Positions 41,312-64,000 of a stretch of DNA of 64,000 nucleotides are shown here, in pieces. Under the pieces are notes generated by a model. It did not search any database. It had not been told where the DNA came from and saw only the letters and a program-made list of their open reading frames with translations. Source of the stretch: Muribaculaceae bacterium (GTDB lineage: Bacteria; Bacteroidota; Bacteroidia; Bacteroidales; Muribaculaceae); contig JAIDTL010000156.1 of NCBI GenBank assembly GCA_029060725.1, forward strand, positions 3,657 through 67,656. The letters run 5' to 3'. The first letter of the stretch is position 1. Every line of letters begins with the position of its first letter. Made by a program: the position numbers and the translations under genes.

Positions 41312-41427
41312 TCATGTTTTATCATGATTAACCATGATTTATCATGATATATTATGATGCAACCAATCTGATCATTGATAATTCATAATTCATAGTTCAT
41401 CGTTGATCGTTAATCGTTGATCGTTGA
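41312..41427. repeat. compound microsatellite (ATCATGATT-, TAATTCA-, ATCGTTG/A-type units)
   Basis: direct reading; overlaps the stop codon of the portal-like gene. Confidence 0.8.
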
Positions 41428-42741
41428 GTCGGCATTCTCTGCCAGCGTAGCAAGGAAATCAGTGAAAGAGCGCAGTATGTCGAGAAGTGACGTTTGAGCG
41501 GCTTCGTTTTGCTGCTGGAATAGAGTGCCGCTTGTGGAGTTGGCTACAAGTTTTCCCTGTAGCGTAGGCGAGACTCCGCTTATGTCTTCAAGCATCTGCA
41601 TCTGGATTTTGAGGAGTTCCGTAATGCCGATGTTGGCACTATTTCCACTGACCTGTGTCGGCATCGGCACCCCGGGCTTTGCATGATAGGGAATCACTCC
41701 GTTGAAACGCGACCATTGGTCAGCCACTTCCTGCAGGCTCATTCCCCTTGGGAGGGATTCATCCGGAAACAACAAGACGCCTTTGGCACTTGACTTCATA
41801 ATGAAGTCATAGAGCGTGATGAGGCGGTTTACGTAGCGTTGCTGATCAATTATGTCGCTGATGTAAGAGTGTATCTCGCCATCAATGAAGGGATATGCCT
41901 TGAATACGTAGGGATGCCTGCCGTATATGCCGCTTTCGCGCAGCAATGTGCCATCAGCGGCAAACCAAAACCTGCGCCATCCACTCTTTATATAGCTGCA
42001 CACTTTCCCCATTTTGCCTTTCCCTTCTTCCGCTTTATTCATGCCTGAGAGGATGTCGGCTATATGGCTGACCCTGAGAATAGCATTTTCTTCGTCATGA
42101 AGAATGCCAAATACTTGGACATCCTTACACCACACTTCTACGATGCTGCACACACTTTGCCCGGCATATAGAGTGGATATCCGATGATATTCGTCGGCGC
42201 TTTCGCAAAATTTTTCTAAGAGAGTGCCGAAACTTACTTTGTGTATTTCCCCTATCAGGTCGATGTCGTTGCCTCGAGGGTCATATCCTTCTGAATGGAA
42301 GAAGAAATTGTCGGCTGTCACTGGAAGGATTTGTTTATCCTCGATTTTTACGGCTACAAGTCCTGAGATCAGGAACTCTTCAAGCAGTCGTGGGGCAAGT
42401 TCTTCCATACGGTTATCGTGAAACCATTTGCGACGATTCTTATTTTTAGCGCTCACCGCTTCTTTTGAAAAGCCGGACCTTTTGACAGTGAGCAATGGCA
42501 CTTTATACTGAGCACGATAAAGACCGATTACATTCCTGAGAATACGACGCAGGATATTGTTTTTCAGTGGCACTTGTCCTTGCCGTAGGATAAAGTTTTC
42601 TTCTGATATCCATTCCTTGCCATCATAAATCTTATCGTCCCACTGGTCGCCATATACGTATCGCTTGCAACGGGAGCGTTCTGAGCGGAAAGATTCCATA
42701 CGTCTCCACTCAATCATTGCATTGTTGTAATATTTCTCCAT
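41410..42741 (-). CDS. phage portal-like protein (compact)
   Basis: YVYGDQW, VPLKNNILRR, HPYVFKAYPFIDGEIHS, DQQRYVNRL, EDISGV..LQG recall P22-type/Bacteroidales portals; ATG 42741 lies downstream of the promoter. Confidence 0.65.
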   Translation of the reverse strand: MEKYYNNAMIEWRRMESFRSERSRCKRYVYGDQWDDKIYDGKEWISEENFILRQGQVPLKNNILRRILRNVIGLYRAQYKVPLLTVKRSGFSKEAVSAKNKNRRKWFHDNRMEELAPRLLEEFLISGLVAVKIEDKQILPVTADNFFFHSEGYDPRGNDIDLIGEIHKVSFGTLLEKFCESADEYHRISTLYAGQSVCSIVEVWCKDVQVFGILHDEENAILRVSHIADILSGMNKAEEGKGKMGKVCSYIKSGWRRFWFAADGTLLRESGIYGRHPYVFKAYPFIDGEIHSYISDIIDQQRYVNRLITLYDFIMKSSAKGVLLFPDESLPRGMSLQEVADQWSRFNGVIPYHAKPGVPMPTQVSGNSANIGITELLKIQMQMLEDISGVSPTLQGKLVANSTSGTLFQQQNEAAQTSLLDILRSFTDFLATLAENADSTIND

Positions 42742-42755
42742 TTGCTTTTTTATCG

Positions 42756-42795
42756 GCAAAGATATCACATTGCGACGCTGCAATCCCCTTATCCC
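42756..42795 (-). promoter_or_regulatory. GGGATAAGGGG-N20-TATCTTTGC promoter of the portal-like gene
   Basis: same motif and spacing as 47690..47729. Confidence 0.7.
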
Positions 42796-42805
42796 ACAAA
42801 TAATG

Positions 42806-42878
42806 AAGCCCCCCAGCCCCCTAAAGGGGGAGTAAAATCGCCAATTCTACTCTCTCCCTTTAGGGGGGTGGGGGACTT
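42806..42878. repeat. REP-like GC-rich inverted repeat (family B)
   Basis: CCCCCAGCCCCCTAAAGGGGGAG ... CTCTCCCTTTAGGGGGGTGGGGG. Confidence 0.8.
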
Positions 42879-42890
42879 CGCCTGGAGGCT

Positions 42891-43910
42891 TTAGAATTCC
42901 ACAAGAATACGGAAGATATCCGGACGATGGGTATTCCAATATGCCAGGATTTCTTCAGCCTGCTCAGGCTGTACTATTGCAGATATGAGGGAGTCGACAG
43001 GGCAAGTGCCACGCTTCATGTATTCCTTCACAGCCTTGAAGTCTTCAGGAAGAGCATTGCGCGAGCCCCTTATGTCCAGTTCTTTCTGCACGAAAAGCTT
43101 TGTCTGGAAAGTGACAGGAGCCGGTGAATATCCGATGCACACCACGCGTCCGGCAAACGACACCTCATTTACAGCAAGATTATATGTGAAAGGCGACCCC
43201 ACAGCTTCTATCACTACATCCGGGCCATCACCACCGGTGATTTCCATCAGTTTGTCGTGGAAGTCTTCTTTTGAAGAGTCAAGACCGTATGAAGCCCCAA
43301 GATGCTTGGCAAGCTCAAGTTTCTTTTCGTCAAGATCCACTGCTATCACTTTTGCACCGCGCAGGGCGGCACGCACTATCGCACCAACACCTATCATACC
43401 GCATCCGATCACCATTACAGTGTCGATATCAGTGACTTCGCCACGTGCTACGGCATGGAAACCGACGCTCATTGGCTCGATGAGGGCGCATTCCTTTACG
43501 CTTAGGCCATCAGCCTCCACCACTTTTTCCCATGGCACAGCGATATACTCCTGCATAGCGCCATGACGTTGCACGCCAAGGGTCTGGTTGTCGCGGCAGG
43601 TGTTGGGACGCCTGCGACGGCAAGACGGGCACTTTCCGCAGGCTGTATAGGGATTGACGGTCACGTGCATCCCTTTTCTGAAAAGCCCTGCGGGCACTTC
43701 CGCCCCAATTTCCTCCACAACAGCGCCGATCTCATGACCCGGCACTACAGGGGAGATAGCAAGGGCATTCTTCCCAAGATACGTATTAAGGTCAGATCCG
43801 CAGAATCCGACATATCCTATTTTCAGCAGCACTTCATCTGCTGACATCTGCGGCCTCTCAGCCTCTACTATAATAACTTTCTCAGGCGATTCAATTAAAA
43901 TCTTTTTCAT
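42891..43910 (-). CDS. Zn-dependent dehydrogenase, putative L-galactonate dehydrogenase
   Basis: CGSD, GHE, CxxCxxC..C, GCGMIG; context with AKR and amidohydrolase. Confidence 0.8.
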   Translation of the reverse strand: MKKILIESPEKVIIVEAERPQMSADEVLLKIGYVGFCGSDLNTYLGKNALAISPVVPGHEIGAVVEEIGAEVPAGLFRKGMHVTVNPYTACGKCPSCRRRRPNTCRDNQTLGVQRHGAMQEYIAVPWEKVVEADGLSVKECALIEPMSVGFHAVARGEVTDIDTVMVIGCGMIGVGAIVRAALRGAKVIAVDLDEKKLELAKHLGASYGLDSSKEDFHDKLMEITGGDGPDVVIEAVGSPFTYNLAVNEVSFAGRVVCIGYSPAPVTFQTKLFVQKELDIRGSRNALPEDFKAVKEYMKRGTCPVDSLISAIVQPEQAEEILAYWNTHRPDIFRILVEF

Positions 43911-43929
43911 CTTAAATTATTTATTGAGC

Positions 43930-44904: not shown

Positions 44905-44908
44905 AATC

Positions 44909-45841: not shown

Positions 45842-45903
45842 GTTGATTTAAAGTTTTGATTTTTGTTAGGATATCAGATTATGCTCCAATTTATGACGAT
45901 AAC

Positions 45904-46095: not shown

Positions 46096-46587
46096 TTATA
46101 ATGGCCAAAGCGGACGGACTACTCCTGATAGATGTGGATGCGAGACCGAAGCAAGATTCCGGAGCGATGCAATGGCGTCGGAAGCTCGCTCTTGCCAGAT
46201 TTTGGCGCCTGGAGGGATGATGACGGCAGTGCGGTCTGCCATTACGGCGGCTACAAGATATTCATGGATCTTCTCCCTGATGTAAGAGACCGAGGATGAA
46301 GGCAATGGAAACAAAAAAGAAAACTGCCATGATTCCGGACGTTCAAGATCATTTGCAAGAGAAACCCTACATTGGGGAGACAATATCTTTTGAAGAGCAA
46401 GCCGTATCTCTGCGATGGCAACGCCGAGCACACGCCATACCCTCTCTACGTTGTCCTTCTCGCATATATCCGCCATCTCATGCCGGCGATGGCGGTCAAG
46501 CTCCGGATGCAGCTCCGCCTCAAGCCACGCGCCACTGCGTATATCGTCGAGGACCTCCCTTGATTTAATGCATAATTCATAATTCAT
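46096..46587 (-). CDS. small phage-like helical protein (adaptor/connector-like), paralogue 3
   Basis: RHEMADICEKDNVERVWRVL, IHEYLVA; similar size and layout to its neighbours. Confidence 0.5.
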   Translation of the reverse strand: MNYELCIKSREVLDDIRSGAWLEAELHPELDRHRRHEMADICEKDNVERVWRVLGVAIAEIRLALQKILSPQCRVSLANDLERPESWQFSFLFPLPSSSVSYIREKIHEYLVAAVMADRTAVIIPPGAKIWQERASDAIASLRNLASVSHPHLSGVVRPLWPL

Positions 46588-46596
46588 AATTTATCG

Positions 46597-47085
46597 TTAA
46601 TCGTTAATCGTTGTCCTTGATGGTTTGGTGCGTTTGCAGAGGGATTCTCGTAGGAGTTCGAGACTGGTTTCGGAAAGACGCTTGTAGTCTTCAGTGTCCT
46701 GCTTGTTGGTGATCATAAACCATTCGGAGGTTGCAAAAGCAACAATATACTGATGGATAGCCGCAATTATGGAGTCAGTGGCAGCTTGATTGAAATTCTC
46801 AGGCATCTCAAGGAAGAGTTCTTCCGACTCTGTACTTATATTGAGCGTATTGTTACCTTGAGTATCGTGTCCCGTCAACACCTCGGCAAGCTCAGCTTTC
46901 ACCTTGGCAAAAGCATTCCCTATACTGCGGAGTATTTGATTGAGGTTCTCGTCATCATTGTTAGCCTGCATCAGTGCAACCTGACGATAGTTTTTGCCGT
47001 CACTGCGGCTTCTGCCTGTAAGGTAGGTCTTGTTCTGGATATCGTAGACGAGCTCCTTGACATTGATGTTAATTTTGATAAGCAT
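46597..47085 (-). CDS. small phage-like helical protein (adaptor/connector-like), paralogue 2
   Basis: ELVYDIQNKTYLTG, IHQYIVAFATSEWF. Confidence 0.5.
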   Translation of the reverse strand: MLIKININVKELVYDIQNKTYLTGRSRSDGKNYRQVALMQANNDDENLNQILRSIGNAFAKVKAELAEVLTGHDTQGNNTLNISTESEELFLEMPENFNQAATDSIIAAIHQYIVAFATSEWFMITNKQDTEDYKRLSETSLELLRESLCKRTKPSRTTIND

Positions 47086-47098: not shown

Positions 47099-47237
47099 AA
47101 TTTAGAATTTAGAATAATTGAGAATTGAGATTTTGGAATAATTCATGATTACCCATGATTACCCATGATTACCCATGATGAATCATGATAAATCTTATCT
47201 AATAATTCATAATTTATAATTCATAGTTAATAGTTAA
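47099..47237. repeat. compound microsatellite (AATTTAG/AATTGAG, three CATGATTACC, TAATTCA/TAGTTAA)
   Basis: direct reading; includes the stop of 47227..47661. Confidence 0.8.
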
Positions 47238-47661
47238 ATCTCTTCGGTGCCGGATGGTGATAAAGGATAGATTGGAGTTTGAGAGCATAGTCGTCGCGAC
47301 GCGAAAACGTTGCACCCGAACGCTCCGGACTCACTATCTCTTGCCAGAGGGCAAGGACATGGGAAGTGAGCATATTCTCGACTGTCTTTTGCAGACTGAC
47401 GGTGTCAGTGGTTTCATTGACAGCGATGGTCATTGAGAGTGAATCGTCGGTGTTGGCGACACTCTTTAGGAAAGGCCGACAGATATCGATGGCGTGCATC
47501 GCCGCTTCGTCGAAGAAGGAGTGGAAGAGTGATTTGTCAGCCTCTGAAAGAGCAAGACGATCATAATCGTTGTCTTGTGGGGAGCGGGTGCCCTGCCACT
47601 CGGTGCGTCTTGCCACTTGCGTGAAGACTTGCATTCGGGGTATTACGATAGATGTTTCCAT
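47227..47661 (-). CDS. small phage-like helical protein (adaptor/connector-like), paralogue 1
   Basis: VFTQVARRTEWQG, YDRLAL, LTSHVLALWQ; first gene of the trio. Confidence 0.5.
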   Translation of the reverse strand: METSIVIPRMQVFTQVARRTEWQGTRSPQDNDYDRLALSEADKSLFHSFFDEAAMHAIDICRPFLKSVANTDDSLSMTIAVNETTDTVSLQKTVENMLTSHVLALWQEIVSPERSGATFSRRDDYALKLQSILYHHPAPKRFNY

Positions 47662-47689: not shown

Positions 47690-47729
47690 GCAAAATTACT
47701 TCATCCCCACCTCCGCTCCCCCTTATCCC
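47690..47729 (-). promoter_or_regulatory. GGGATAAGGGG-N20-TAATTTTGC promoter of the small-protein trio
   Basis: same motif and spacing as 42756..42795. Confidence 0.7.
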
Positions 47730-47864: not shown

Positions 47865-49790
47865 TTAGAAAGACGCCGGTGAGAAAATTCCGGCACGTGG
47901 ATGATCCGGTGGAAGGTTAGGAGTCAAGTCAGGATTGCGCTCCGGCTGCCATGTACGGATATGAATCAAAGGCTTATCAGGATCATTGAAGTCAACGAAA
48001 AGGAACAGATAACCTTGGTCACCGTATGTCTGCGAGATATAATCTTGCTTCAACTGAAGAGCATACGTCTCGCCGCCAACTCCGGAACGCTCTACATCTG
48101 TGTCTGTAAAACGCAGGTTGATGAATTCCTGGCTTGCAAAGCAACGACGCAGCTGCTCCATATATTCCTTCTTTGACTTCTGAGAATATGTGACCTGTTC
48201 CTTCGAAGCGAGCCCGAAACCGTCGGCTCCCGGAACTTTCTCCAGTTTCTTGGTGACATGACCCACAATGATGACCGCGTCATCATCGAAAATACTCTCA
48301 ATATAGTCCTGAAGACCAAGAGCAAACGCTGTTCGGTAATTTTCCAGGAAGTTGACGAGCACCATCTTCTTGTCATCATTCCAAGCTGCTCCTTCCTTGG
48401 CAAAGATATCCTTGCGTGCTATGCTTCCAAGTCCGAAACCAAGGCTGACAAGCTTGCAGTCTTTATTGAATGTAAAGGTTACATCTTCGGTAAACTGGCG
48501 TCCCTTGCTGAAAGTAAACGACATCGGCACTGAGCGGCACATTACCTCGTCGCGATAGGGATAGAATTCGTATGTGTCGCGTGTAGCCTTGCCGAGGATA
48601 CGCACCTTTCCATACTTCATCAGACGCTCAAACATCATCCAGCCTTCAGGAGTGCAGATCTCTTTCACCTCGTCAAATTTTCGGTTGTTGATGCAATATA
48701 TGATCTTTTCCATCAAGCCTACGTAGGGCGACACTTCCTCGCGGTTCAGCTCCAGGATACCTTCGTGCGCCCCGGCAGCCACCTGCTCCTGGAATGCCTT
48801 AGCTTCCTTCTTGTCAGCTTTCAGTTCCTTTTTTGAATTATTGATCAGAAATTCATTTGCCACCAATCCCCCTCCCTTGTAGGAGTCAAGAAGAGGCTTG
48901 AGTTCAGCATCAGCATGGTTTTCATTCTTAAACTGATATTCCACATAAAGCTTCAGGGGCTTCATAGGCACGTCAGATGGGAGTTCGAGCATCGCCATGC
49001 CATCCCGGGCGGTGATCAGTGGCGAATAGCCTGTGTTTGTGCCATATTTGAACGTGCACGTAGTGGCAGGCTTTCCGTCATACTTCACATTGAGCTCTAC
49101 AAGCTTTGTGCCGCTTTCCGGATCATCTTCATCATCGCTGACCGACGCAATTCCAAAGCTCACTTTATTGACAATGTCGCGCATAGCCTCGGGCAACCAT
49201 ATAGAGAGATTCTCCTCCTCTCCATTTATTTTCTCATTGACGTCTGACGGATTCGGCAGACTTTGGAGAAGCACGTAGGAGCGATAAAGATGACGGAGCG
49301 CATCGTCGACTTTCCCTTTTTCGGCAGCCTTGGCGCCGGAACGTGCCAAATCCGCCACATTCTTGCGTCGGCGGTCATGCATCTTCCTGATATTCTCCTT
49401 AGGCATATAGACGAAACGCTCGAAATCAGGAGCTCCGCCTACAGCTATCACTTGCACTCCCTCCAAAGAAGCCGGAGTGGTGTAGCTTTCCACTACAGAT
49501 GTAAACTGCTCAGATGAGACAGTCGTGCCATCAGCCTGAAGTAGGTCGGTGGCCTGTCCGAAAGTGCGTCCGCTGACAGTCTGAGAAATCTTCTTGACCA
49601 TGTCATGGACAGCGGCAGTGTATGCCTCCTCAGCATCTCCGCCGAAGCCGACCCCATAGATAAAGAGATCCGGCATATTCTTGATTTCCTCAGCCCTTTT
49701 CTGCTCCGGTGTCTCCTTGGGCTTCGCTGCAAAACTTAAGGTAGTCCCGAGAAGCGCCACTGCAAATATAAAAAAAATACGCCTTAACAT
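47865..49790 (-). CDS. exported protein with LPP20-like N-terminal domain
   Basis: signal peptide; YGVGFG..EEAYTAAVHDM..IS; C-terminal YGDQGYLFL..IHIRTWQP. Confidence 0.55.
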   Translation of the reverse strand: MLRRIFFIFAVALLGTTLSFAAKPKETPEQKRAEEIKNMPDLFIYGVGFGGDAEEAYTAAVHDMVKKISQTVSGRTFGQATDLLQADGTTVSSEQFTSVVESYTTPASLEGVQVIAVGGAPDFERFVYMPKENIRKMHDRRRKNVADLARSGAKAAEKGKVDDALRHLYRSYVLLQSLPNPSDVNEKINGEEENLSIWLPEAMRDIVNKVSFGIASVSDDEDDPESGTKLVELNVKYDGKPATTCTFKYGTNTGYSPLITARDGMAMLELPSDVPMKPLKLYVEYQFKNENHADAELKPLLDSYKGGGLVANEFLINNSKKELKADKKEAKAFQEQVAAGAHEGILELNREEVSPYVGLMEKIIYCINNRKFDEVKEICTPEGWMMFERLMKYGKVRILGKATRDTYEFYPYRDEVMCRSVPMSFTFSKGRQFTEDVTFTFNKDCKLVSLGFGLGSIARKDIFAKEGAAWNDDKKMVLVNFLENYRTAFALGLQDYIESIFDDDAVIIVGHVTKKLEKVPGADGFGLASKEQVTYSQKSKKEYMEQLRRCFASQEFINLRFTDTDVERSGVGGETYALQLKQDYISQTYGDQGYLFLFVDFNDPDKPLIHIRTWQPERNPDLTPNLPPDHPRAGIFSPASF

Positions 49791-49837
49791 TTATAATTAA
49801 TAATTTATAATTAATAATTTATAGTTATAATTAATCA

Positions 49838-51520: not shown

Positions 51521-51539
51521 TGTTGATATTCTACTTGAA

Positions 51540-53069: not shown

Positions 53070-53092
53070 TTTTATTATATACATTAGAGTTA

Positions 53093-56000
53093 TTATTTCA
53101 CCATTACTTTCACTCCGCCTACGATATATATGTCGCGTGTCAAGCCTTCGATGACTACTGTCTCGCCCGCTTTCAAATGCATGGTACGTATCACCACGCC
53201 TGTAGCCGTAGTCACAGCAGTATTGCATTCACGGCTGCTGCTGACGCGGATAGTGCCTGCTGCCGGAGTCTCTACCATTATGCCTGAACCGGATGCTTCT
53301 GCCACAGGTGTCAGCACTCCGCTCCAGTCGCCGAAGACAGGTATCTGCTTTGGCATTCCCTCGCCGCGAAGATATGCCCCGAATGGAAGGGTCTTATCTT
53401 CCGTCACGAATGCACTGCCAAGCCAATCACGGCCTGCCAACATGTTGACGTTGATCGACCGTATTCCGGTCTCCTCCACCGGCAGGAAGGTGCCCACAAA
53501 CTCTGTCCCGTCAAGCCACTTGTCTGCTTTCGGCATAACGCTGTCAGGAATAAGTGTCACTCTCTCCGCAGCAAATGTCACTTTGCCGGGAAGATTATAG
53601 CCGTAGACATAGTCTTCATTGTTTGGCATGGAGATGATGTAGGGTGTGCGAGCCTGAATGGCACTTGCAGCTACCCAGCCCTCTTCTGCAGCATTGTATA
53701 GCCAGAAAGGCTTGACGCTATCTTCCGGACCTTTCCATAATGAGAATGGCACAATTTCACCTGCCTGCTCATGCATGATGCTTGCTGCGTCGAAGGGTAG
53801 GGCTATGGTCTCCCATCCTGCACATTCTCCAATCACTGTCGGCATAGTGAATTCCTTGGTCAGCTCTATGTGCTCTACATCAATCGGCATGTGAACGCCG
53901 AAAGGATAACCGGGCATAAGAGCGACCTTCTTTGCTGTTCCCGTCACTCCTGCTCCATCCGGATCGGTAGGAGCGTCACCACTAATGTATGGATAGGTCA
54001 CGACGTTGATTGCATCTGAAGGAGCATTATCTTCGTCAAACACCCAAAGCAATATATTGGGGTTGTCGGCTTCTGCAAGTCTTCCCTCCGGCATACGCTC
54101 GTCGGTGATACCCCACATCACAGTAGTCAGTTTCTTCATTCCCTTCAGCATTCCCTGCGGTATGCTATAAGCGAAAATGGTCTCAAGCGCTGAGTTGGCG
54201 AAGACTCCGTCGCACGGTTCTGTGGTGGTGTGGTTTGGCGCTAAGTGAAGTGCAGTGAGATTAGGAAGCGACCCGAGGAATTCAAGGTCTTCTTTCTCTA
54301 TCTCTCCTCCGTTGATATAGAGATATGTGTACTCATCCGGGTTGTCACCCCAAGTGCCGAACCCTTCGGAAATGCGATATCCATTCCTTGCGGCGGCTAT
54401 GCGTCCGGTGTTGAAATAGTCGATTTCCTTCGCTACGGTGTCGCTGCGGAATGCATTGTCAGAAGTAGCTACAGCTGTCAGGCGTGCCATATATGAGACT
54501 TCCATCGTGCGCTCGCCTACTCCGCCATGCCGGTATTCATCATCCATAAATATACTTACATTCGCTGATGCAGAAGCGGGGTCTCCTTCGGCAGGACCAT
54601 AATGCACTGCGTGGCCGTCATAATCCACCTTTGGAGGAAGATGGAACACTAACTCTTCTGAAATAGTCTCAGAATCGTAGCGGTCTTCATCAGTGGCAAT
54701 GGCTGAGACTTGAAGAAGCCTCATTTCAGGCACTACGTCGATTGACTCAAGGCTATTGCAAATCCGTTCTTCTCCATCGATGATCACGCGTATTGCCGCT
54801 CCATCTGCATTCTCAACAAATACTCTGCGACCTTCAAAATCCTTGCCAATTGTAGGAATGGTTTCCTTCCACTGGCTGAGCACAAAGTTATATATGGCTT
54901 CATCAGAATCGTTGTAGCCTGCCTTTGTGGCAATGAATCTGACAGTGCAGTCTTCTGTCATTGGTATCGGTTCGCTGTAAAGCGTTGATGAGGATGTCGG
55001 TTGATCGCCGTTGGCTGTATAGCGTATCTGTGCAGACTCTTCTTCACTCGCCAATGTTAGATAATGCTTACCGTAGGATGCTGTAGGAGCAGGCAACTTC
55101 ATGTTGGAAACTTCGTAGACCGTCACGTCAGATTCGATAAAGTCAGCTAAGAAAGCTCTGACGGTAAAGGTCATGTTACCGGTGATGTCGATTGGCTCCG
55201 TGTAGACTGTTCCTGTCGTTGGAGTCGGCACAGTTCCATCGGTAGTGTAACGGATCTGCGCACCGACTGTAGCACAAGTCATAGTGACTTTCATCGTCTC
55301 CAGACTGTGGGTTACGATCGGAGCCGTAACTTTCCTGTCATCCACTGTCACGGAAGCCTCTTCAGAATCAAACAAATCGCTACGAAATGCCTTGGCTGTA
55401 TAAGTATGGTTGCCTACGACTGATATCGGACCTTCATACTTGATTCCGGTCTCTTCTGTCGGAGCCTCCCCGTCAATGGTATATCGGATCTCCGCACCAT
55501 CAGTGTCGCAAGTCATTGCGATGGTCAATGCTTCCGGATCGTAGGTCAGCTCAGGAGTTGCCACCTGATGATCTGCTATCTTGAATTCGTATGTGCCTGT
55601 TTCTGAATCGAGGAAGTATTGGCGCATTGCGATGAACTTCACCGTGCAGTCTTCCGTCAGAGCGACAGGGGCTTCATAGAGTGCAGATTCTGCAGTAGGC
55701 TCTGCACCGTCAAGTGTATATCGGATGGCTGCCTCAGCATCACTGCACGACAATGTCAGCACTTTGTTGGCAAAGCTTGCTGTTGGAGTCGGCACTTTCT
55801 GGTCGTCGACTGTCACGGAAGCCGATTCCGAATCAAACAAATCGCTACGGAATGCCTTGGCTGTATAGGTATGGTTGCCTACTACAGCTACCGGGCCTTC
55901 ATACTTTATTCCTGTCTCTGCTGTCGGAGCCTCACCGTCAATGGTATAGCGGATTTCGGCATTGATGGTATCACATGTCATTGTGATGGTCAATGCTTCC

Positions 56001-57937
56001 GGATCGTATGTCAGCACTGGAGTTGCTACAACATGATCAGCATATACGAAAGTATAGCTGACGGTGTCTGATGGCTCATAGTTAGCTTTGAAACCACGTG
56101 CCACCACCTTGCAGTCTTCAGTAAGTCTGAGGGGAGCGGAATATGCCGCAGATTCTTCCGTCGGTACTGAGCCGTCGGTTGTGTAGCGGACGGTAGCCCC
56201 TGAAGTGGCAGTAGCTAAAGTAAGGGCAAGATCGGAATAACTATAAGTCGGTGTTTCTACTTTATAGCCATCTATGACGTACTCTCCTATGGGTGAATCA
56301 AAGTAATTCACGTGTGTCGTATACGCCTTCACAGTAAAGTTGCCATCGAGAGTCAATGGCTCCGTATAGAGGGTGCTTGTGGCATCCGGATCTGTACCGT
56401 CTGTCGTATATCTGGTTTCTCCATCATTAATAGCAGGGATGATCACAATCTTCCCATCCTCATTGACAGAGAAGGTTGGAGCAGGTATGGAGTGTTCAGC
56501 CCGACGAAATACATAAATGCTTATGGGAGAGTCGGTCAGACCATCCTTGCTTGCGTATGCTTTGATACGGCAATTTTCTTCCGGTTCGAAAGGAGCCGTA
56601 TAGACAGTACTTTCCTCATTAGGGTCGGTAAAATCTGTAGTATATCGAATTATAGCATCAGGCGTTTCACTCGAAATCTTCAACAGACGATTTTCAAATG
56701 TAAAGATTGGAGCGCCAGTCTTATATGCCGTCACCTGATAGCTAACTACAGGAGAATCTTCCATACCCTCCTTATAAGCTATGGCCTTCACAAGAAGGTT
56801 GCTACCTACATATATAGGCGCGGTATAAACAGGACTTGCTGCCGTTGGGTTTGTACCGTCAAGGGTATAGTGGATTGTCGCACCCGGAGTCTCGCAGAGA
56901 ATCTGCACGTGAGTATCGTCATACATACCCATACGTGGCCACATAACCATATTTTCCGCAATCGACCCGTCTGGATTTGGAATGCCGGGTTCCTCTGGAT
57001 TTGCCGGATTGTAATTGTAGGAGAAATTGGCTGTAAGTGTTACGTTGCGTTGAGGCATAGTATACTCAAATTCTGATGCCTCAGAAACGACATTGCCAAG
57101 ATCATCGGTCCAGTTTACAAATGTATAATAGTCATGAGATTCTGAATAGATTGATTTAGTCGATCCTTCTTCCACCATAGCATCATATACACTATAATAA
57201 TCATGATAGAAGTGCACATATCCTCCATCCGCCGGATTTGACTGTACCTTAAGTAGTCTCAAAGGACGCTGTCCGCCGGGTTCTTCAGGATTTGTCGGGT
57301 CATATTCGAAGTTGGCAATAAGCGTATGATCTCCTTGCGGAACAGTGTAATTAAGTACCTCATCCGTCCCAATTACTACTCCTCCTCTTGTCCAATTGAC
57401 AAAACGGTAGTTTTGATAGGCATGTACTTGAAAATCATGTGTACTTCCCACTTCAAACTCATCACTATAACTATCTCTCCATGATCCTTGAGATTGCTGG
57501 TAGAAATAACCGGCATCGATCGGGTTAGTTATAAATGTGATCTTTGATTCGGTCTTGAATTCTGGAGTGGAAGGTTCTTCCGGAGAATCCGGATCGTAGA
57601 CAAAACGTGCTGTCAATATGACATCCCGACTCGGCATTGTATAAGTGAAGTCTTGGTCAGTAGATATTACATTTCTCGCTTCATCTTCCCATTGTATGAA
57701 TTTAAAACCGGTATTCCCTGTAGTATATACATATACGGAGCTTCCAAAGGCATGGCTTTCTTTCGGAGTAAGATTCCACGCCGCATTTTCAGGCACACAC
57801 CGCGTAGTCAGGGTGAATTTGACCCCCGGCTCCGGTGGATCTGCCGGATTGTATTGGGCTTTCGCTGCAGTGCCCCACAAAAGGAGCACAAGCAGCGGAA
57901 GTATTATCCTAAAGGATAAATTTAGGTGTAACCTCAT
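53093..57937 (-). CDS. large secreted repeat protein (InlB-B-like repeats plus about 8 CHB_HEX/Fn3-associated repeats), T9SS-like tail
   Basis: repeated (I/V)RYT.DG..PT..S..Y..P units; NPADPPEP repeats; tail ..IYIVGGVKVMVK. Confidence 0.8.
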   Translation of the reverse strand: MRLHLNLSFRIILPLLVLLLWGTAAKAQYNPADPPEPGVKFTLTTRCVPENAAWNLTPKESHAFGSSVYVYTTGNTGFKFIQWEDEARNVISTDQDFTYTMPSRDVILTARFVYDPDSPEEPSTPEFKTESKITFITNPIDAGYFYQQSQGSWRDSYSDEFEVGSTHDFQVHAYQNYRFVNWTRGGVVIGTDEVLNYTVPQGDHTLIANFEYDPTNPEEPGGQRPLRLLKVQSNPADGGYVHFYHDYYSVYDAMVEEGSTKSIYSESHDYYTFVNWTDDLGNVVSEASEFEYTMPQRNVTLTANFSYNYNPANPEEPGIPNPDGSIAENMVMWPRMGMYDDTHVQILCETPGATIHYTLDGTNPTAASPVYTAPIYVGSNLLVKAIAYKEGMEDSPVVSYQVTAYKTGAPIFTFENRLLKISSETPDAIIRYTTDFTDPNEESTVYTAPFEPEENCRIKAYASKDGLTDSPISIYVFRRAEHSIPAPTFSVNEDGKIVIIPAINDGETRYTTDGTDPDATSTLYTEPLTLDGNFTVKAYTTHVNYFDSPIGEYVIDGYKVETPTYSYSDLALTLATATSGATVRYTTDGSVPTEESAAYSAPLRLTEDCKVVARGFKANYEPSDTVSYTFVYADHVVATPVLTYDPEALTITMTCDTINAEIRYTIDGEAPTAETGIKYEGPVAVVGNHTYTAKAFRSDLFDSESASVTVDDQKVPTPTASFANKVLTLSCSDAEAAIRYTLDGAEPTAESALYEAPVALTEDCTVKFIAMRQYFLDSETGTYEFKIADHQVATPELTYDPEALTIAMTCDTDGAEIRYTIDGEAPTEETGIKYEGPISVVGNHTYTAKAFRSDLFDSEEASVTVDDRKVTAPIVTHSLETMKVTMTCATVGAQIRYTTDGTVPTPTTGTVYTEPIDITGNMTFTVRAFLADFIESDVTVYEVSNMKLPAPTASYGKHYLTLASEEESAQIRYTANGDQPTSSSTLYSEPIPMTEDCTVRFIATKAGYNDSDEAIYNFVLSQWKETIPTIGKDFEGRRVFVENADGAAIRVIIDGEERICNSLESIDVVPEMRLLQVSAIATDEDRYDSETISEELVFHLPPKVDYDGHAVHYGPAEGDPASASANVSIFMDDEYRHGGVGERTMEVSYMARLTAVATSDNAFRSDTVAKEIDYFNTGRIAAARNGYRISEGFGTWGDNPDEYTYLYINGGEIEKEDLEFLGSLPNLTALHLAPNHTTTEPCDGVFANSALETIFAYSIPQGMLKGMKKLTTVMWGITDERMPEGRLAEADNPNILLWVFDEDNAPSDAINVVTYPYISGDAPTDPDGAGVTGTAKKVALMPGYPFGVHMPIDVEHIELTKEFTMPTVIGECAGWETIALPFDAASIMHEQAGEIVPFSLWKGPEDSVKPFWLYNAAEEGWVAASAIQARTPYIISMPNNEDYVYGYNLPGKVTFAAERVTLIPDSVMPKADKWLDGTEFVGTFLPVEETGIRSINVNMLAGRDWLGSAFVTEDKTLPFGAYLRGEGMPKQIPVFGDWSGVLTPVAEASGSGIMVETPAAGTIRVSSSRECNTAVTTATGVVIRTMHLKAGETVVIEGLTRDIYIVGGVKVMVK

Positions 57938-57958
57938 ATTTAATGGGGGTTAAGATTC

Positions 57959-60900
57959 TTATTTTACGATTGTCTTGAATGACTCGCCATTCACCTTCAC
58001 TACATATACACCACCGGCTACCTCAATCTCAAGGCTTCCGTTTTCAGCTACAGTGTTGGTGATGATGCTGCCGTCAGTTCCATAAACTGCTACAGTTGCG
58101 CCTGTAGGTGCAGAAACTGAGATTGATCCTGCATTGCCTACAACCTTTACAGCATTGTCTTCTACTCCCTCTACTGCTGTGACAGCAGGTGCAAAGCGGA
58201 TTGAGAAGCGTGAGTTGTCAATTCCGGTCTTGGAGGCAGTGAAGATATAGTCTCCTTCATTAAGATCGAATTCAATGCCTGTCTCTGCGTCATAAAGCCA
58301 AGCCTGACGATCAGCACGCTGCGCTGAGATGCGGTAAGTGCGGTCTGCTGCAGGAAGAAGCACACCAAGTGCAACATTGCCATCCTCGTATGGACGCTCG
58401 TTGATAGCCATTGGGTGTTTGTTGTCGCCAAGAGTGTAAAGCTGAGCCACGTTGGCATCCATACTCATGAACTTAGAGGCATCGCGTACTGTCTCGTATG
58501 CCATTGAAGCCTGTTCGTTGAGCACTACGCGTGTATAGTCGTCAGCGGTTTCGTTGTCGTCGCAATAAAGTTCAAGGTTGAGTTTATGACGATTTTCATC
58601 CACTACGATAGGACGCGGAGCGCGTGAACGGTCAATGTTAGTGTTGATCTGTCGACCTACAAGCGGCATACCGGTGGAAAGATCAGGAGTGTCAACAGAC
58701 TTCTGCACGAAGAATGGCTGCATCGGACGGAGCACGAATGTGTCATCGCCACGGTCGCCGTCATTGAGTGAGTAAGCGCGGTAAGTGCTGCCGGTCCATA
58801 CTGTGATGGGAGCCTGCATGTCGATGTAGTAGATATCGTAATATGTCGGATATGGGTTTGCAACGAAGTTCCAACCGGCATTAGCCTCAGTCTCGCAAGC
58901 ATTATCAGCAAGTTCGAATGTCACTGCATTCGATCCAAGCATCTTTTCGTTTTCTGATGTTGCAGCCGCCGGCATGTATAGCCAACCTGGTTCGCGAGCT
59001 TGGATAATGTATCCCTGTCCGCTCTTAAGCGTACCGTCTGCCGGAACGTTGATCCAGTTGCCGGAAGTTGCATCCTCGCTTGCGCGACGAGCACCATCAT
59101 AGTAACGGATTACCCAAGAATCAGTGGCAGGATATCTCACATCTGCCATATTCACATCAGTGACTGGAGAGAAGAAATACCATGTGTCTCTTCGTTCTAC
59201 ATAGAAGTTTGTCACTACACTGTTCGCGTTGACAGAATTAGCCCTGCTAAGCAAGGAGGCAGGAGAAGATTCACTGTTATTGAAAGTCAACACATCAAAA
59301 CTCTGTGGAGTGTCTGCATCCAAGGTCAAAGTGCCGCCGGTCATTATCTCAAGCGAAGGAGTACCTTGCATGTGATGTGCATTATTTAGTGTTAGATCCC
59401 CTCGGATCGCCCAGTAATCATTTACAGAAGCCTCGTCAGAAACCTGAGTATTTGTAAATTGATACCAGTATGGATCTGCCTTGTATGCTTCAAGGGCAAA
59501 ATCTGGCACATATAGAGTTACATTAGACTTATTAACATTATAAAATGGTTCGTAGCTATAATATGTATCGACAGAAGGAGGCGTAGCACATGGAAGCACA
59601 ATTTTCTCCAAAGCAGTACAACCACTAAAATCAGCAGACATATCCCAACAATGTGAACTCAATGACACCTCTTTTAGATTTTTACAATCTGCAGCTATTC
59701 CCTCTCCATAAGTCGCTACTGATGGAGGAATTGAAAGACTTTCCAGAGCGGACCCTGCAAAAGCGCGATAAGCTATTTTGGTCACAGTCTCAGGAATGTC
59801 AATTGACTTGATATTCGTATAGGAGAACGTCTCCCATTCTATGACTTCGGCATTCACTGGAATATTTACCTCTTCAAGAGCAGTACAATTATAAGCAACT
59901 CCTCGGGGTACAGTTTTTAATCCATTAGATATGTGAAGTTTCTTCAAAGACTTGCAAGATGCAAGTACATCCCAATTATCATAATAATTTTCATGCCAAC
60001 TGTTTGAATTATGTTCTTCAGCATTTCTGCCGGCTTCAGTGACACTATCGGGCATATAGAATTCTATAAGGCGAGTAGATGAAAAAGCATCGTGACCAAT
60101 CTTTTTTAATTTTGAATTATCCGCAAATGTCATAAATTGAAGGGGTGTTCCATGCCACGCACAGTATCCTATGGTTTCAACAGAAGCCGGAATCGTTGCC
60201 TGATGGAAATTGGTTTCATAGAAAGCATAATTTCCAATCATTTTTAGTGTCTCTGGGAGCATGACAGTGCTAAGATAACTTAATCCTCGCATTCCTTCGT
60301 CAGGAATGGATGTTATGTTCGTGGCAGAAAAGTCAATGGCTTTTGCCCCGGAAAGTTGCTTCACTATTGCCCAGTCGTCGGAGTTCATAGAGCCATTGAT
60401 CTTTACAAGTTCAGCATCCTGAAGGTTCTTGCCCTCAAGCGCCTGCAGAATCTTCACGCTTAGTTCGCCGGGATTATTCAAAGTCACTTCATACCAGTTT
60501 TGGTCAAGACGGACATTGCGAAGATGGGTAATATTAGTATCCGCGTCATCTATCTCCCAACTCTCAAACTCAATGGTATGGGTGCCAGGATTAAGAACTA
60601 AGCAATATGATTCCCAATCGTAGTTTCTATGAGTATAGTACATGACACCGTCAACATATACACACGACTTACGCCCCTCATACCAACTTTTGAGATTACG
60701 TATTTCATATTCGAAGATAGATGCCTTTTCAATGGTGAATGTCGTGGAGATTTTCGTACAAGAATCTCTTTCTCCCTTAAACACAGAGCGGATATAACCA
60801 TCCTCTGTAATCCAAATATTGTTGGGATCATTCTGAAATTTGATAGGAAGCGAACCGTCTTTTAGACATGCAGTTTCAAGTTCCTTGCATTCCCATACAC

Positions 60901-61396
60901 GAAGATTTCGGATTCCTGCAAAATAATCTTCATTCCAATAATTCTCTGCCGTAGATATTGAAACAAATTCAATGGTATGCGTACCGGCGGACACCATTAT
61001 ATTGAATTTATACCAGCCACTATAAGTAGTGAAAGTTTTTTCTTCTCCGTCAATAATTAATTTCAGGATATCTTCTGAGTTATAACAATATTTTCTCCAC
61101 TCACCAGTCAATTCAATTGGGTAAGAAGAAGTGTAGCTAAACGAAAGAGTGGTTGTAAAAGCAGTATCCTCATTCGGAATTTCCGGAGTTCTCATATATG
61201 ATTCCCCTTCCGGTATATACCATGGATGCTCCGCATCATTAGTCCATTTCACTGGCACAGATCCTTCAACGAGGATTGCCTCGCTGATTTCATCTGAGGA
61301 AAGTTGCGCGTCAGCTGTGGCGTAGCCACACACCGCGAGGAGCAGAATCGCTAAATAGCGAAACCGCTCTACATTTTTAAGTAAAGTACTTGTCAT
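57959..61396 (-). CDS. BspA-like leucine-rich-repeat surface protein, T9SS-like tail
   Basis: LPETLKMIGNYAF, IPASVETIG, IPETVTKIAYRAF LRR_5 units; GVYVVKVNG..KTIVK tail. Confidence 0.85.
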   Translation of the reverse strand: MTSTLLKNVERFRYLAILLLAVCGYATADAQLSSDEISEAILVEGSVPVKWTNDAEHPWYIPEGESYMRTPEIPNEDTAFTTTLSFSYTSSYPIELTGEWRKYCYNSEDILKLIIDGEEKTFTTYSGWYKFNIMVSAGTHTIEFVSISTAENYWNEDYFAGIRNLRVWECKELETACLKDGSLPIKFQNDPNNIWITEDGYIRSVFKGERDSCTKISTTFTIEKASIFEYEIRNLKSWYEGRKSCVYVDGVMYYTHRNYDWESYCLVLNPGTHTIEFESWEIDDADTNITHLRNVRLDQNWYEVTLNNPGELSVKILQALEGKNLQDAELVKINGSMNSDDWAIVKQLSGAKAIDFSATNITSIPDEGMRGLSYLSTVMLPETLKMIGNYAFYETNFHQATIPASVETIGYCAWHGTPLQFMTFADNSKLKKIGHDAFSSTRLIEFYMPDSVTEAGRNAEEHNSNSWHENYYDNWDVLASCKSLKKLHISNGLKTVPRGVAYNCTALEEVNIPVNAEVIEWETFSYTNIKSIDIPETVTKIAYRAFAGSALESLSIPPSVATYGEGIAADCKNLKEVSLSSHCWDMSADFSGCTALEKIVLPCATPPSVDTYYSYEPFYNVNKSNVTLYVPDFALEAYKADPYWYQFTNTQVSDEASVNDYWAIRGDLTLNNAHHMQGTPSLEIMTGGTLTLDADTPQSFDVLTFNNSESSPASLLSRANSVNANSVVTNFYVERRDTWYFFSPVTDVNMADVRYPATDSWVIRYYDGARRASEDATSGNWINVPADGTLKSGQGYIIQAREPGWLYMPAAATSENEKMLGSNAVTFELADNACETEANAGWNFVANPYPTYYDIYYIDMQAPITVWTGSTYRAYSLNDGDRGDDTFVLRPMQPFFVQKSVDTPDLSTGMPLVGRQINTNIDRSRAPRPIVVDENRHKLNLELYCDDNETADDYTRVVLNEQASMAYETVRDASKFMSMDANVAQLYTLGDNKHPMAINERPYEDGNVALGVLLPAADRTYRISAQRADRQAWLYDAETGIEFDLNEGDYIFTASKTGIDNSRFSIRFAPAVTAVEGVEDNAVKVVGNAGSISVSAPTGATVAVYGTDGSIITNTVAENGSLEIEVAGGVYVVKVNGESFKTIVK

Positions 61397-61886
61397 TGTT
61401 AGATTGTTAAGTTTTATTGTTGTTTAATTTATTATCACTTTATTAATCCGAAAGGAGTGCTTATGTCGCTGAATTGTCAGTGGTAAGGCATAGCCTTTTA
61501 GCAAATCTACGCATTAATGTGCAAATTTACAAAAAATATTTCAAAGTTTAGCTAAAAAACAATATAAAAAAGCAATTATTTAATAATTTCATGCAAATTA
61601 GAACCACAAGCAGCTCAGACTATCACTCTAATTAGTATATCTTGGCGCCAGCTATATCCTCCAGGTTATCATAGAGGATGCTTTTTCCAAAGAAGGCGAT
61701 AGTGGTGCGAACGCAGTGAGCACTCCATAAAGCAAATTTATACTAAAATTCTCTCTTATCAAAATTTTCCTCTGATTTCATGCTGATTTCTACGGCTTAG
61801 AAAGACGCCATCATCGACTGCACAAAACCGTGCAGTCTTTTACAATTTTTAACACAATTTATTTTGCTTAATGCTTTGCTTTGTCA

Positions 61887-61894
61887 TAATTTTG
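61887..61894 (+). promoter_or_regulatory. -7 promoter element of the rightward phage-like unit
   Basis: TAATTTTG(CA), 30 nt before ATG 61925. Confidence 0.5.
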
Positions 61895-61924
61895 CATCAG
61901 ATAAATTTAAAATATGCAATGCTT

Positions 61925-62320
61925 ATGAAAAAGAAAGGAAGCCGCAGCGACTTCAATGCCCAGCGTGACGCCGAACTCCGCCAGGCATTCTTCAACCAAG
62001 GAGTCTATTCCACTAATGACAGAGTAATCAAACGAACCGTCAAAACCCCCACTTCCCGATTCTGGGTAGACCCGGACCGGGCCCGAGATATCATGAGCCG
62101 TATCGAGAAAGATCCCACCTCTATAAAGAGGATGAATCCCGAACGGCAACGTATGTATCTTTCCCTATACGAAAAGTATCAGAAACTGAGACGCAAATGC
62201 CCCTCCTATTCCAAAATCGAAGCCGTAACAATCGCCATCTACTCCGGCGCCCCTGAATTCTTCCTCGCCCCATCCACAGCCCGCTCCATCATCTACAACA
62301 ATGTTTATCCCACTTATTGA
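61925..62320 (+). CDS. small basic phage-associated protein
   Basis: KKKGSRSDF..RD.EL, PTSRFWVD..RA, APEFFLAP recall Bacteroidales prophage genes near terminase. Confidence 0.5.
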   Translation: MKKKGSRSDFNAQRDAELRQAFFNQGVYSTNDRVIKRTVKTPTSRFWVDPDRARDIMSRIEKDPTSIKRMNPERQRMYLSLYEKYQKLRRKCPSYSKIEAVTIAIYSGAPEFFLAPSTARSIIYNNVYPTY

Positions 62321-63635
62321 AAAAGATCGCGACGCCAATGACTTTACCTGCCGCGACGGCGAAATCGACATGGAAAGCAGGCTTTCCAGCCTGCGGCTAA
62401 CCACACCTGACGCGCCAAGCCGCAGGCCGGAAGGCCTGCTTTCCATAAATCCATCAGGCACTTACCCCACTGCAACCTTGCGGATTCCTCTCTTGGCAGG
62501 GGAGAAGGAGAAGGCAAATCTGATGCTGTCAGGTGAAATCTCTCGTGTAGACCCTGCCACTGCAGAGAGAATCACACAAGCCATACTTCAAAAGGCAGCT
62601 GAGTTTCTTCTCGATCTCTCGACTGAACTAAGAAGACAAGGGCAATTCATCCTTCCATTCCGGTGCTTTACCATGACGATGACTCCCGATGGCTCTCTCT
62701 CCTACCCTTCCCCACAAGCCATCGCTCTCCCCACTGATTTCCCACCCCATCCTGAAATAACTGCAGCAACTGCTACCGACGATGCCCTGACTATCGCCAT
62801 ACGGTTGCCCGTACGTCCACATCGATTGATCCTCTCATCATCCGAAGGCTTGTCTATGGGTGATTCACTTCGCACATTCATCAGTTATCCTCTCTATATT
62901 CCCGACCCCAAGGAACTGCGAGGAAGCATCGGGAGCGTGAAGTCTGCCACCGGAGGGAATGCCATCGGCATTCGGTTTGCTTTTCTTTCCACTTCTTCGA
63001 TAAAGGCTTCTGTGGCAGCCCCGGAGAAGTATTATGAATTTGTCGGCAATGAACGTACCGGGTATCGTGTGTCGTCGAAAGCTGCGTCTGCTCCCGATTA
63101 CTCTTGTTATGCCGCTATCTATGGCAGTGTTACGCCATTCTCCCGTAATTCTTTGTTATCTCTCGGCAATGACGTCTCAGCCGACACTGATCCTATGGAT
63201 TGGATTGCAGATTGGATAGAAGCCGGCGATGGATACCTCCCATCAAATCTCCCTTATAAATATCGGAATCCTGATTCTACATCTGAGTCTTTCACTTTTC
63301 CTGAAGGCATCGACGCTGACTATATAAAGGAGACCGCCACTGCTCTTGATATGCCATACATATTGCTGACTCGCCCCATGGCATTGGCTTCCGACAGCAG
63401 GAGCCGACGAAATGCAGCCCCACGTGCCATCCGAAGCATCCAAGTCTTAGGTTTATCTGACTCCCCCGCTCTCGGAATTATCTATGGCAGCGATGATTGC
63501 CGGCACTGGGAACCCCTTCGCAGTTTCGACCCCCACATCAAAAGCCACATCCTCTCCCCTCCACGCCTTTGGTGGCGCCTGCTGCTCTTAACATCCCAAC
63601 CCAACAAAGCCTTAGCCCTCCACCTCCTCCCCTAA
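62301..63635 (+). CDS. phage tail-tubular/stabilisation-like protein, probably internally shortened
   Basis: CRDGE N-terminus, FILPF, LLTRPMAL, IYGSDD..W C-terminus (recalled similarity); open frame of 444 aa. Confidence 0.4.
   Translation: MFIPLIEKDRDANDFTCRDGEIDMESRLSSLRLTTPDAPSRRPEGLLSINPSGTYPTATLRIPLLAGEKEKANLMLSGEISRVDPATAERITQAILQKAAEFLLDLSTELRRQGQFILPFRCFTMTMTPDGSLSYPSPQAIALPTDFPPHPEITAATATDDALTIAIRLPVRPHRLILSSSEGLSMGDSLRTFISYPLYIPDPKELRGSIGSVKSATGGNAIGIRFAFLSTSSIKASVAAPEKYYEFVGNERTGYRVSSKAASAPDYSCYAAIYGSVTPFSRNSLLSLGNDVSADTDPMDWIADWIEAGDGYLPSNLPYKYRNPDSTSESFTFPEGIDADYIKETATALDMPYILLTRPMALASDSRSRRNAAPRAIRSIQVLGLSDSPALGIIYGSDDCRHWEPLRSFDPHIKSHILSPPRLWWRLLLLTSQPNKALALHLLP
62370..62446. 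repeat. REP-like family C inverted repeat inside an ORF
   Basis: 29-bp arms ATGGAAAGCAGGCTTTCCAGCCTGCGGCT / AGCCGCAGGCCGGAAGGCCTGCTTTCCAT (2 mismatches). Confidence 0.85.
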
Positions 63636-63682
63636 AGCCCTTAAAGCCCTTAGTGCCCCTAATGCCCCTAATGCCCCTAAAG
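63630..63682. repeat. 9-mer tandem repeat (CCCTAATGC/CCTTAAAGC), same family as 5446..5540
   Basis: ccctaaagc ccttaaagc ccttagtgc ccctaatgc ccctaatgc ccctaaag. Confidence 0.8.
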
Positions 63683-63687
63683 ATAAA

Positions 63688-64000
63688 ATGACACAAGAAG
63701 AAATTTCAATTGAACAAATACTCGAAGAGGATGAACGCCGCTCCAGAGCTATGTCGACTCCTTACGATCCGGTGTCGGGACTCTTGAGCCCCGGCACCAG
63801 ATTCTCCATATCCATCCCAGAGCTGGAGCCATCCAGACTGCATATCCCGACAGCCATGCAGGAACTCCCGGAAGTCCGTATGCTCATGGCAGGACGTAGC
63901 CTTACGGAGGCTTTCCCCGGAACGATAGAAAATGCCCGCCAGAGATGGTTTGAGCTCCGTTGCCGCTACGATTTCCCTTTCTGGGCTTTCAAGTGCATCA
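63688..64000 (+). CDS. 5' part of a terminase-large-subunit-like gene (runs off the window)
   Basis: hand translation MTQEEISIEQILEEDERRSRAMSTPYDPVSG...RCRYDFPFWAFKCI; PYDPV.G and DFPFWA recall Bacteroidales prophage terminase N-termini; not in the ORF track. Confidence 0.55.
   Translation, partial: MTQEEISIEQILEEDERRSRAMSTPYDPVSGLLSPGTRFSISIPELEPSRLHIPTAMQELPEVRMLMAGRSLTEAFPGTIENARQRWFELRCRYDFPFWAFKCI

Follow-up and report, generated by a model that had tools for sequence, protein, structure and literature searches.

The right-hand part of the 64,000-nucleotide stretch of Muribaculaceae DNA analysed here (the window) contains phage-derived genes for building and filling a short-tailed virus particle, interleaved with genes of the host. 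A sequence-only reading of the window had pointed out a portal-like open reading frame (ORF), three small paralogues and a rightward unit with a terminase-like start, and had suggested that they were kept by the host, possibly as a gene transfer agent (GTA). Together with a capsid operon beyond the window end, eleven phage-derived genes in four transcription units were found within about 33 kb in total, and all eleven are open in this genome (Table 1). To judge from their sequences and predicted folds they encode most parts of a short-tailed particle. The predicted function is that of a GTA-like system, and the genes probably represent a domesticated, host-retained set of podovirus type that forms particles and packages DNA.

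Table 1. Phage-derived genes and their promoters in the window and beyond its right end.
Feature	Position	Strand	Size and evidence
Portal, P22 type	41410..42741	-	443 aa from ATG; PF16510, phrog_156
Adaptor-like paralogue 1	46096..46587	-	163 aa; phrog_19255 E 6e-16
Adaptor-like paralogue 2	46597..47085	-	162 aa; predicted podovirus head-to-tail adaptor fold
Adaptor-like paralogue 3	47227..47661	-	144 aa; phrog_35482 E 4.7e-7
Small basic protein, small-terminase candidate (position only)	61925..62320	+	phrog_27246 E 3.5e-17
Tail nozzle or tail hub-like protein	62301..63635	+	444 aa; predicted fold
Large terminase (TerL), start in the window	63688..64000, on to 65766 in the extended sequence (L009:2345-4423)	+	692 aa; phrog_2
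Capsid operon (scaffold-like ORF, capsid, F6, F2)	contig C79, 7.5 kb beyond the window end		
Portal promoter	42757..42793	-	GATAAGG, 22-nt spacer, -7 box TATCTTTG
Trio promoter	47691..47727	-	GATAAGG, 22-nt spacer, -7 box TAATTTTG
Packaging-unit promoter	61863..61894	+	TTTG, 20 nt, TAATTTTG; no GATAAGG box

The family-library scans covered the ORFs of the window from 37.7 kb onward. The portal ORF, which in its longest form spans 41410-42783 on the minus strand, matched PF16510 (E 2.9e-20; 72.8 bits against a gathering cut-off of 26.1) and the 'portal protein' family phrog_156 (E 5.4e-41, profile positions 10-451 of 681). Use of the upstream TTG start at 42783 would give a protein of 457 amino acids. 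Since the -7 box at 42757-42764 falls inside this longest ORF, the start is probably the ATG at 42741, as the sequence-only reading had it. Chromosomal portal homologues in relatives have 426-532 amino acids, against 650-670 in related phages.

Reading on past 64 kb, as had been proposed, gave a complete terminase with intact ATPase and nuclease motifs. Among the PHROG terminase families the best match was phrog_2 (E 9e-16). The protein has a lambda-type Walker A motif (K147-x4-G-x-S), D251/E259, an ESTANG motif and the nuclease residues D483, E545 and H649-D650-D651; Walker A and B, the coupling motif and the RNase H-like acidic triad of a large terminase are thus all present. All of these motifs and residues are invariant across 12 aligned homologues.

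A capsid gene was found as well. It is located on contig C79 of the same assembly, which was identified through the proteins encoded beside the terminase in relatives. The major capsid protein (481 amino acids) matched PF17236 with 27.3 bits against a cut-off of 24.1, and its profile matched the solved major capsid protein of phage VP1 (9in6_M) with E 9.5e-13. It is adjoined by the genes of two small proteins, F6 and F2, and the operon also contains an acidic, scaffold-like ORF of 137 amino acids. Single-sequence searches of the PDB with the portal, capsid and TerL gave nothing useful, and only the capsid profile succeeded; an NCBIfam scan gave no names.

The three small ORFs are true, if distant, paralogues, as the sequence-only reading had it. 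In profile comparisons with hhalign, paralogue 1 matched paralogue 2 with 97.9% probability (E 3.8e-13) and paralogue 3 matched paralogue 2 with 96.5% probability (E 8e-10). The two PHROGs matched by the trio, 19255 and 35482, are both annotated without function. A model of paralogue 2, built from a 70-sequence alignment (predicted local distance difference test score, pLDDT, 86; predicted template modelling score, pTM, 0.83), has the predicted fold of a podovirus head-to-tail adaptor. The Pfam family SU10_adaptor (PF24175) matched nothing, control sequences included.

The 444-amino-acid protein had no match in the family-library scans. It has at least 133 homologues of constant length, every one from Muribaculaceae, and its model (pLDDT 89.7) suggests a podovirus tail-nozzle fold. 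Among viral predicted structures the model matched a 978-amino-acid podovirus protein (E 8e-8) and also 'stabilisation' proteins like P22 gp10, the resemblance that the sequence-only reading had proposed. The structural matches of adaptor and nozzle are drawn from the same solved virions, and it is VP1 that the capsid profile matches. An identity of the nozzle-like family with the approximately 900-amino-acid phrog_32516 family of related phages was considered, and homology was not established (hhalign 36% probability, E 4e-4). A 77-bp palindrome at 62370-62446, resembling a repetitive extragenic palindromic (REP) element, is situated inside the nozzle-like ORF at residues 24-49 approximately; copies of its arm occur on many contigs. 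The palindrome region spans the one long low-confidence stretch in the N-terminal half of the model (residues 32-40, pLDDT <50) and is also variable in a 76-sequence alignment of the nozzle, and the palindrome therefore apparently lies in a tolerated surface loop.

In the order of the window the portal is followed by a sugar operon, the adaptor trio, a surface-protein cluster and the packaging unit, which consists of the genes for the small-terminase-like (TerS-like) protein, the 444-amino-acid protein and TerL. The order continues rightward past TerL with a RAYT-like gene, a CLC channel gene, an aminotransferase gene and dnaX, and then F2, F6, the capsid gene and the scaffold-like ORF. The contig holding the window (C64) and C79 overlap by 54 identical nucleotides and the halves of a single CLC channel gene flank the joint. 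The two contigs are therefore contiguous, which places all units in one neighbourhood around dnaX. This dnaX, between TerL and the capsid operon, is the sole full-length copy in the assembly. The last 95 bases or so of C64 (the right end of L009), past the overlap, resemble Illumina adapter sequence and are probably an assembly artefact, which would be why the two contigs were left unjoined.

The library scan showed that the spacer between portal and trio is an operon for an alcohol dehydrogenase (ADH), an amidohydrolase and an aldo-keto reductase. The spacer between the trio and the TerS-like gene is a 13.5-kb cluster of five surface-protein genes with BACON, PEGA, CHB_HEX and leucine-rich repeat (LRR) domains. 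The division into three separated blocks that the sequence-only reading had described stands as far as these two spacers go, but its count falls one short, because of the fourth block on C79. No integrase, replication gene or recognisable lysis gene was found around the gene set, and none of the genome's nine tyrosine integrases is on C64 or C79. The earlier view that this is not a normal prophage is upheld by this, and by the host genes, the sole dnaX among them, that are interleaved with the set.

The distribution of the genes was examined in 121 genomes of the family, 98 of them of high quality. Portal homologues were found in 116 and TerL homologues in 112 of the 121, and each in 94 of the 98, that is in about 95% of the sampled Muribaculaceae genomes. 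The capsid gene was found in 97 of the 121 with a divergent query. Beyond the family, in a sample of the order with two genomes per family, TerL was present in 14 and the capsid in 12 of 196 high-quality genomes, and each capsid-positive genome was also TerL-positive. Portal and TerL are often unlinked in the family, and about 1 Mb apart in one genome (G007).

Two classes of gene set can be distinguished. Class A comprises prophages of about 47 kb or more with many small genes and a protein of 2000-3200 amino acids beside a portal of 650-670. These elements also carry TerL, the phrog_27246 protein, whose gene immediately precedes that of TerL in those class A loci that were examined, the capsid, a tandem adaptor trio and the phrog_32516 protein. 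The giant protein had polyvalent-protein domains in the one case scanned, and one element (G065) has a tyrosine integrase at its end. Class B is a more distant, chromosomal set found in nearly every other genome. In this family-wide set the cluster has the order F7, capsid, F2, portal, F13, which is a small gene that also matches phrog_27246, and a homologue of the adaptors (hhalign 90.5% to the trio). The class B TerL is located elsewhere, often beside a protein of about 860 amino acids that is weakly related to phrog_32516 and may stand in for the nozzle. Class B sets are flanked by housekeeping genes. In G007, a class B genome, the capsid-portal cluster is next to PhoH and dnaX, and the adjacency to dnaX both there and in the present genome hints at a shared ancestral locus.

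The mode of inheritance was studied in 25 class B genomes in which TerL and portal are on different contigs or far apart. In the TerL tree and in the portal tree the sequences cluster by genus of the host with as few label changes as are possible, a value as low as this being reached in 0 of 200 shuffles, and the two trees contain the same within-genus sub-clades. Patristic distances in the two trees are correlated (r=0.82; Spearman 0.54 for between-genus pairs only). For within-genus pairs with synonymous divergence (dS) of 0.1-1.5, the ratio of non-synonymous to synonymous divergence (dN/dS) was 0.05-0.16 for TerL and 0.05-0.10 for the portal. Nearly all genes fetched for these comparisons are intact; the TerL of G118 has an internal stop codon. 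These trees and ratios indicate that the family-wide set is inherited vertically under strong purifying selection. The sequence-only reading is supported by these results: none of the findings that it had named as counting against it was made, neither a lack of matches to portal and terminase, nor patchy or pseudogenised orthologues with dN/dS near 1, nor a location inside a complete prophage.

The present genome (87% complete) and two genomes of the same genus, G063 and G110 (each 99% complete), fall in the class A clade in the TerL and portal trees, where they are basal and paraphyletic to the phage copies. The TerL of this genome is about 50% identical to class A TerL. None of the three genomes yielded a further portal, TerL or capsid. 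G063 has a compact module of seven genes with host genes on its flanks and G110 has two blocks. BLAST searches of this genome with phage proteins, together with hidden Markov model (HMM) searches, matched only the capsid, F6, F2, portal, TerS-like protein, TerL and trio, and HMMs of the phage or family-wide F4, F7, F12 and phrog_32516/F8 found nothing. What this genome carries is a variant close to the phages, in which there are three adaptors and the nozzle is short.

The trio-plus-nozzle variant is also present in Sangeribacter metagenome-assembled genomes (MAGs), the nearest relatives. In one of these (L160) the order is sugar operon, trio, TerS-like gene, nozzle, TerL, dnaX, aminotransferase, CLC and portal; in L081 it is trio, nozzle, TerL, RAYT, CLC and aminotransferase. 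The units are thus separated by the same host genes in different species, and inversions have occurred between them. In comparisons with the nearest relatives the phage-derived genes have dN values of 0.14-0.40 and the host flanks have values of 0.03-0.135, and only dN can be used because dS is saturated.

Two neighbouring features were compared in the same relatives. The gene directly downstream of TerL (L009:4696-5301) encodes an IS200/Y1-type transposase (PF01797, E 5.7e-7) that is RAYT-like and could be a source of the REP elements; it is kept at the same position in L081. The surface cluster (47865-61396) encodes a 641-amino-acid orphan, a lipoprotein with BACON and 'viral BACON' domains, a PEGA protein with an outer membrane protein (OMP) barrel, a 1614-amino-acid protein of CHB_HEX repeats and a BspA-type LRR protein with DUF6383. 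It is absent between the trio and the TerS-like gene in L160 and is therefore apparently an insertion in the present lineage; for the same reason the cluster was dropped as a candidate part of the system.

The TAnnTTTG box that the sequence-only reading had seen at each block was found there again. Upstream of three units, the portal, the trio and the capsid operon, it forms part of the longer pattern GATAAGG-N22-TAnnTTTG. When spacers of 21-23 nt were allowed, the genome contained 15 sites with the pattern, and the spacer was 22 nt in all 15; by a rough estimate about 0.3 sites would be expected by chance. The ordinary Bacteroidetes-type promoter consensus is that of Bacteroides sigma-A promoters, and the packaging unit has such a host-type promoter. 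GATAAGG occurs at the same spacing upstream of the trio and portal in L160. The exact 11-mer GGGATAAGGGG had been a candidate for the conserved box, and it is not kept in the relatives even when one mismatch is allowed; what is kept is the core GATAAGG and the 22-nt spacing.

Related phages and more distant genomes have boxes in the same place. In the phages of G113 and G065, AGATAA(A/C)G precedes the structural operons with an identical spacer. In G007 a different, 21-nt box, TGCGAAGTTRCGGGTTCAGCG (L054:~9000 and L055:~11580), is common to the capsid-portal unit and the TerL unit about 1 Mb away, and the distance from its end to the -7 box is equal in the two units. Between genomes, the box thus varies in sequence while its position is fixed. 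We infer from this shared promoter architecture that the scattered units form a regulon under a common factor, which could belong to the host or to a phage.

Other genes of the same promoter class were also observed. An ORF of 333 amino acids that resembles the TerL N-terminus (34% identity over residues 25-169) is present in two copies (C65:26866-27972 and C117:276-1482; L212 and L218), each with a GATAAGG-N22-TAnnTTTG promoter both before and after it. Downstream of the second promoter no ORF of at least 60 amino acids and no Rfam match was found. The same promoter class is found at a divergent DUF4417/DUF1848 gene pair (C69:13824-16166, L213) and at the gene of a DUF6291 protein (C127:746-1690, L214). 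These DUF4417, DUF1848 and DUF6291 genes could be candidates for regulator or accessory functions.

If the genes work as a GTA-like system, procapsids would be assembled from capsid, portal and scaffold, the terminase would pump DNA into the procapsid and cut it, and the adaptors and nozzle would then close the portal. The portal, adaptor and capsid units would be switched on jointly through the GATAAGG box with its 22-nt spacer. Because the set is not accompanied by replication or integration genes, the packaged DNA would be mostly chromosomal, as in a GTA, and might in turn be transferred to other cells.

Several observations speak against a domesticated GTA-like set in this genome. It spans only about 33 kb and is not spread genome-wide, so that particles might be able to package the set itself, and a sample of 100 species of the genus yielded the trio-plus-nozzle variant in only about 10. 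The variant of this genome is the one nearest to live temperate phages, its TerL having 52-53% identity to those of BKO1-TP3 and BS-TP4. In both trees the phage copies branch from among the chromosomal copies of the genus, so the capture may have been more recent. In L160, a Sangeribacter MAG, TerL (7992-10048) is split into overlapping ORFs of 339 and 369 amino acids, by either a frameshift or a sequencing error. No lysis, tail-fibre, needle or receptor-binding gene and no regulator was identified in the set. Lastly, the box resembles that of the structural operons of related phages, so that the genes may answer to a phage activator and not to the host.

This last point leads to the main rival explanation, a phage-inducible and helper-dependent device switched on by the late-gene activator of a BS-TP4-like phage, either infecting or resident. 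Such a device could divert phage assembly and packaging, as a defence, or, like a satellite without mobility, borrow fibres and lysis from the phage to spread host DNA. It would explain why the core of the box and its 22-nt spacing match those of the G113 and G065 phages and why recognised lysis and fibre genes are lacking; moreover the homologous phages infect the same family, and in the trees the copies of this type from chromosomes and from phages fall together in a single clade. We nevertheless regard it as unlikely. The packaging unit does not have the box, the family-wide sets use other boxes (G007), and the strict co-divergence with the host at dN/dS 0.05-0.16 does not look like the arms race that a defence gene should undergo. 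In a search of ten of the proteins against PADLOC-DB 2.0 the sole match was at chance level (13 bits).

A decaying prophage or a mobile satellite would fit the data much less well than a GTA-like system. A functional temperate prophage should have a contiguous genome with integrase, replication and lysis genes, the polyvalent protein and the phrog_32516 protein, whereas the searches with phage proteins detected only the genes listed above and C64 and C79 have no integrase. For a phage satellite, which should be a compact mobile island with integrase and replication module, such as the capsid-forming phage-inducible chromosomal islands (cf-PICIs), the lack of an integrase on C64 and C79 and the host-gene synteny kept across species are out of character. 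There is also the explanation that, at least in this lineage, the genes are the non-functional, rearranged remains of a BS-TP4-like prophage that have not decayed so far. Complete temperate phages of about 47 kb or more, with integrase and polyvalent protein, are among the nearest relatives of TerL, capsid and trio, the patchiness of the variant within the genus would follow, and so would the split TerL of one relative. Remains of this kind seem improbable, given that all eleven genes are open both here and in relatives at dN 0.14-0.40 and saturated dS, that the catalytic residues of TerL are invariant and that the special promoter is conserved. The survivors are, furthermore, exclusively particle-forming genes that cover most parts of the particle, and they have been kept in three species of the sub-clade despite the inversions and insertions between them. 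A capsid-based structure that serves some purpose other than DNA transfer, such as disposing of DNA or acting as a compartment for storage or secretion, would account for the failure to recognise receptor-binding or lysis genes, but it is very improbable, as the conserved terminase nuclease and ATPase, portal, adaptors and nozzle are sensible solely for packaging DNA and for retaining or ejecting it.

Among known systems, GTAs and other viriforms, such as FpGTA and the RcGTA of Rhodobacter capsulatus, which has a multi-locus 'genome', likewise consist of phage-derived genes at several loci of the host chromosome, without genes for integration or replication, inherited vertically and under purifying selection. 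A podovirus-like, short-tailed morphology has been reported for FpGTA of Faecalibacterium (PMC12946183); here the same morphology is predicted from the genes alone. The present system differs from these in its independent origin, its P22-type portal, SU10/VP1-type capsid, adaptor and nozzle, its occurrence in the phylum Bacteroidota and its extreme dispersal in some relatives (about 1 Mb), and also in that no lysis, fibre or regulator genes were identified.

The closest phages are the cultured, temperate Bacteroides phages BKO1-TP3, BS-TP4 and BF1-TP2 (PMC12694917), with TerL 46-53% identical to that of this genome, and related Muribaculaceae prophages. The latter share the tandem adaptor trio, a portal with approximately 38-40% identity, a capsid with 64-65% identity (G113 and G017) and, upstream of the structural operons, a box of GATAA type separated from the -7 box by 22 nt. 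The records of the cultured phages are 64-68 kb and the Muribaculaceae prophages about 47 kb or more, compared with the interleaved set of about 33 kb here. The prophages also have their own 2000-3200-amino-acid protein, the 650-670-amino-acid portal, many small genes and, in G065, an integrase, none of which was found in this genome. The podoviruses SU10, VP1, GP4 and Pa223, whose portal-tail complexes have been solved, resemble the set in the predicted folds of adaptor and nozzle, with the same PDB entries matched at 5-17% identity. Their nozzles are longer (512-912 amino acids against 444), while the present set has three adaptor paralogues and no recognised fibre or needle genes. The cf-PICIs also have head and packaging genes without tail fibres and a possible dependence on a helper, but each of them forms one unbroken mobile island that brings its own integrase and replication genes. 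Nothing of that kind was found here, where the set is interrupted by host genes and is passed on vertically.

In the gut of mice, Muribaculaceae rank with the most abundant bacteria, and they are also common in humans; GTAs have been established in only a few lineages. The literature search found no publication on this system, nor on any GTA in Bacteroidota. In a recent preprint, Muribaculaceae DNA made up about 19% of the 'transductome' of virus-like particles (VLPs) from the mouse gut, and contigs of Duncaniella had a uniform VLP coverage by an unexplained mechanism (10.64898/2026.07.08.737213). A wider scheme, put forward only tentatively, is that a podovirus-derived, GTA-like particle exists throughout the family, with units wired by a box that varies between genomes at a fixed 22-nt distance, that the set of the present lineage was renewed or replaced from BS-TP4-like phages, and that such particles explain the uniform carriage of chromosomal DNA of Muribaculaceae in mouse-gut VLPs.

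The conserved set of capsid, portal, adaptor, nozzle and terminase offers a testable candidate mechanism for the presence of this DNA in VLPs, and hence for horizontal gene flow in Muribaculaceae. The shared promoter box at its fixed distance provides a route to finding the regulator. Because chromosomal sets occur alongside closely related live phages, domestication, replacement and the exchange of modules between phage and host could be studied directly in this family.

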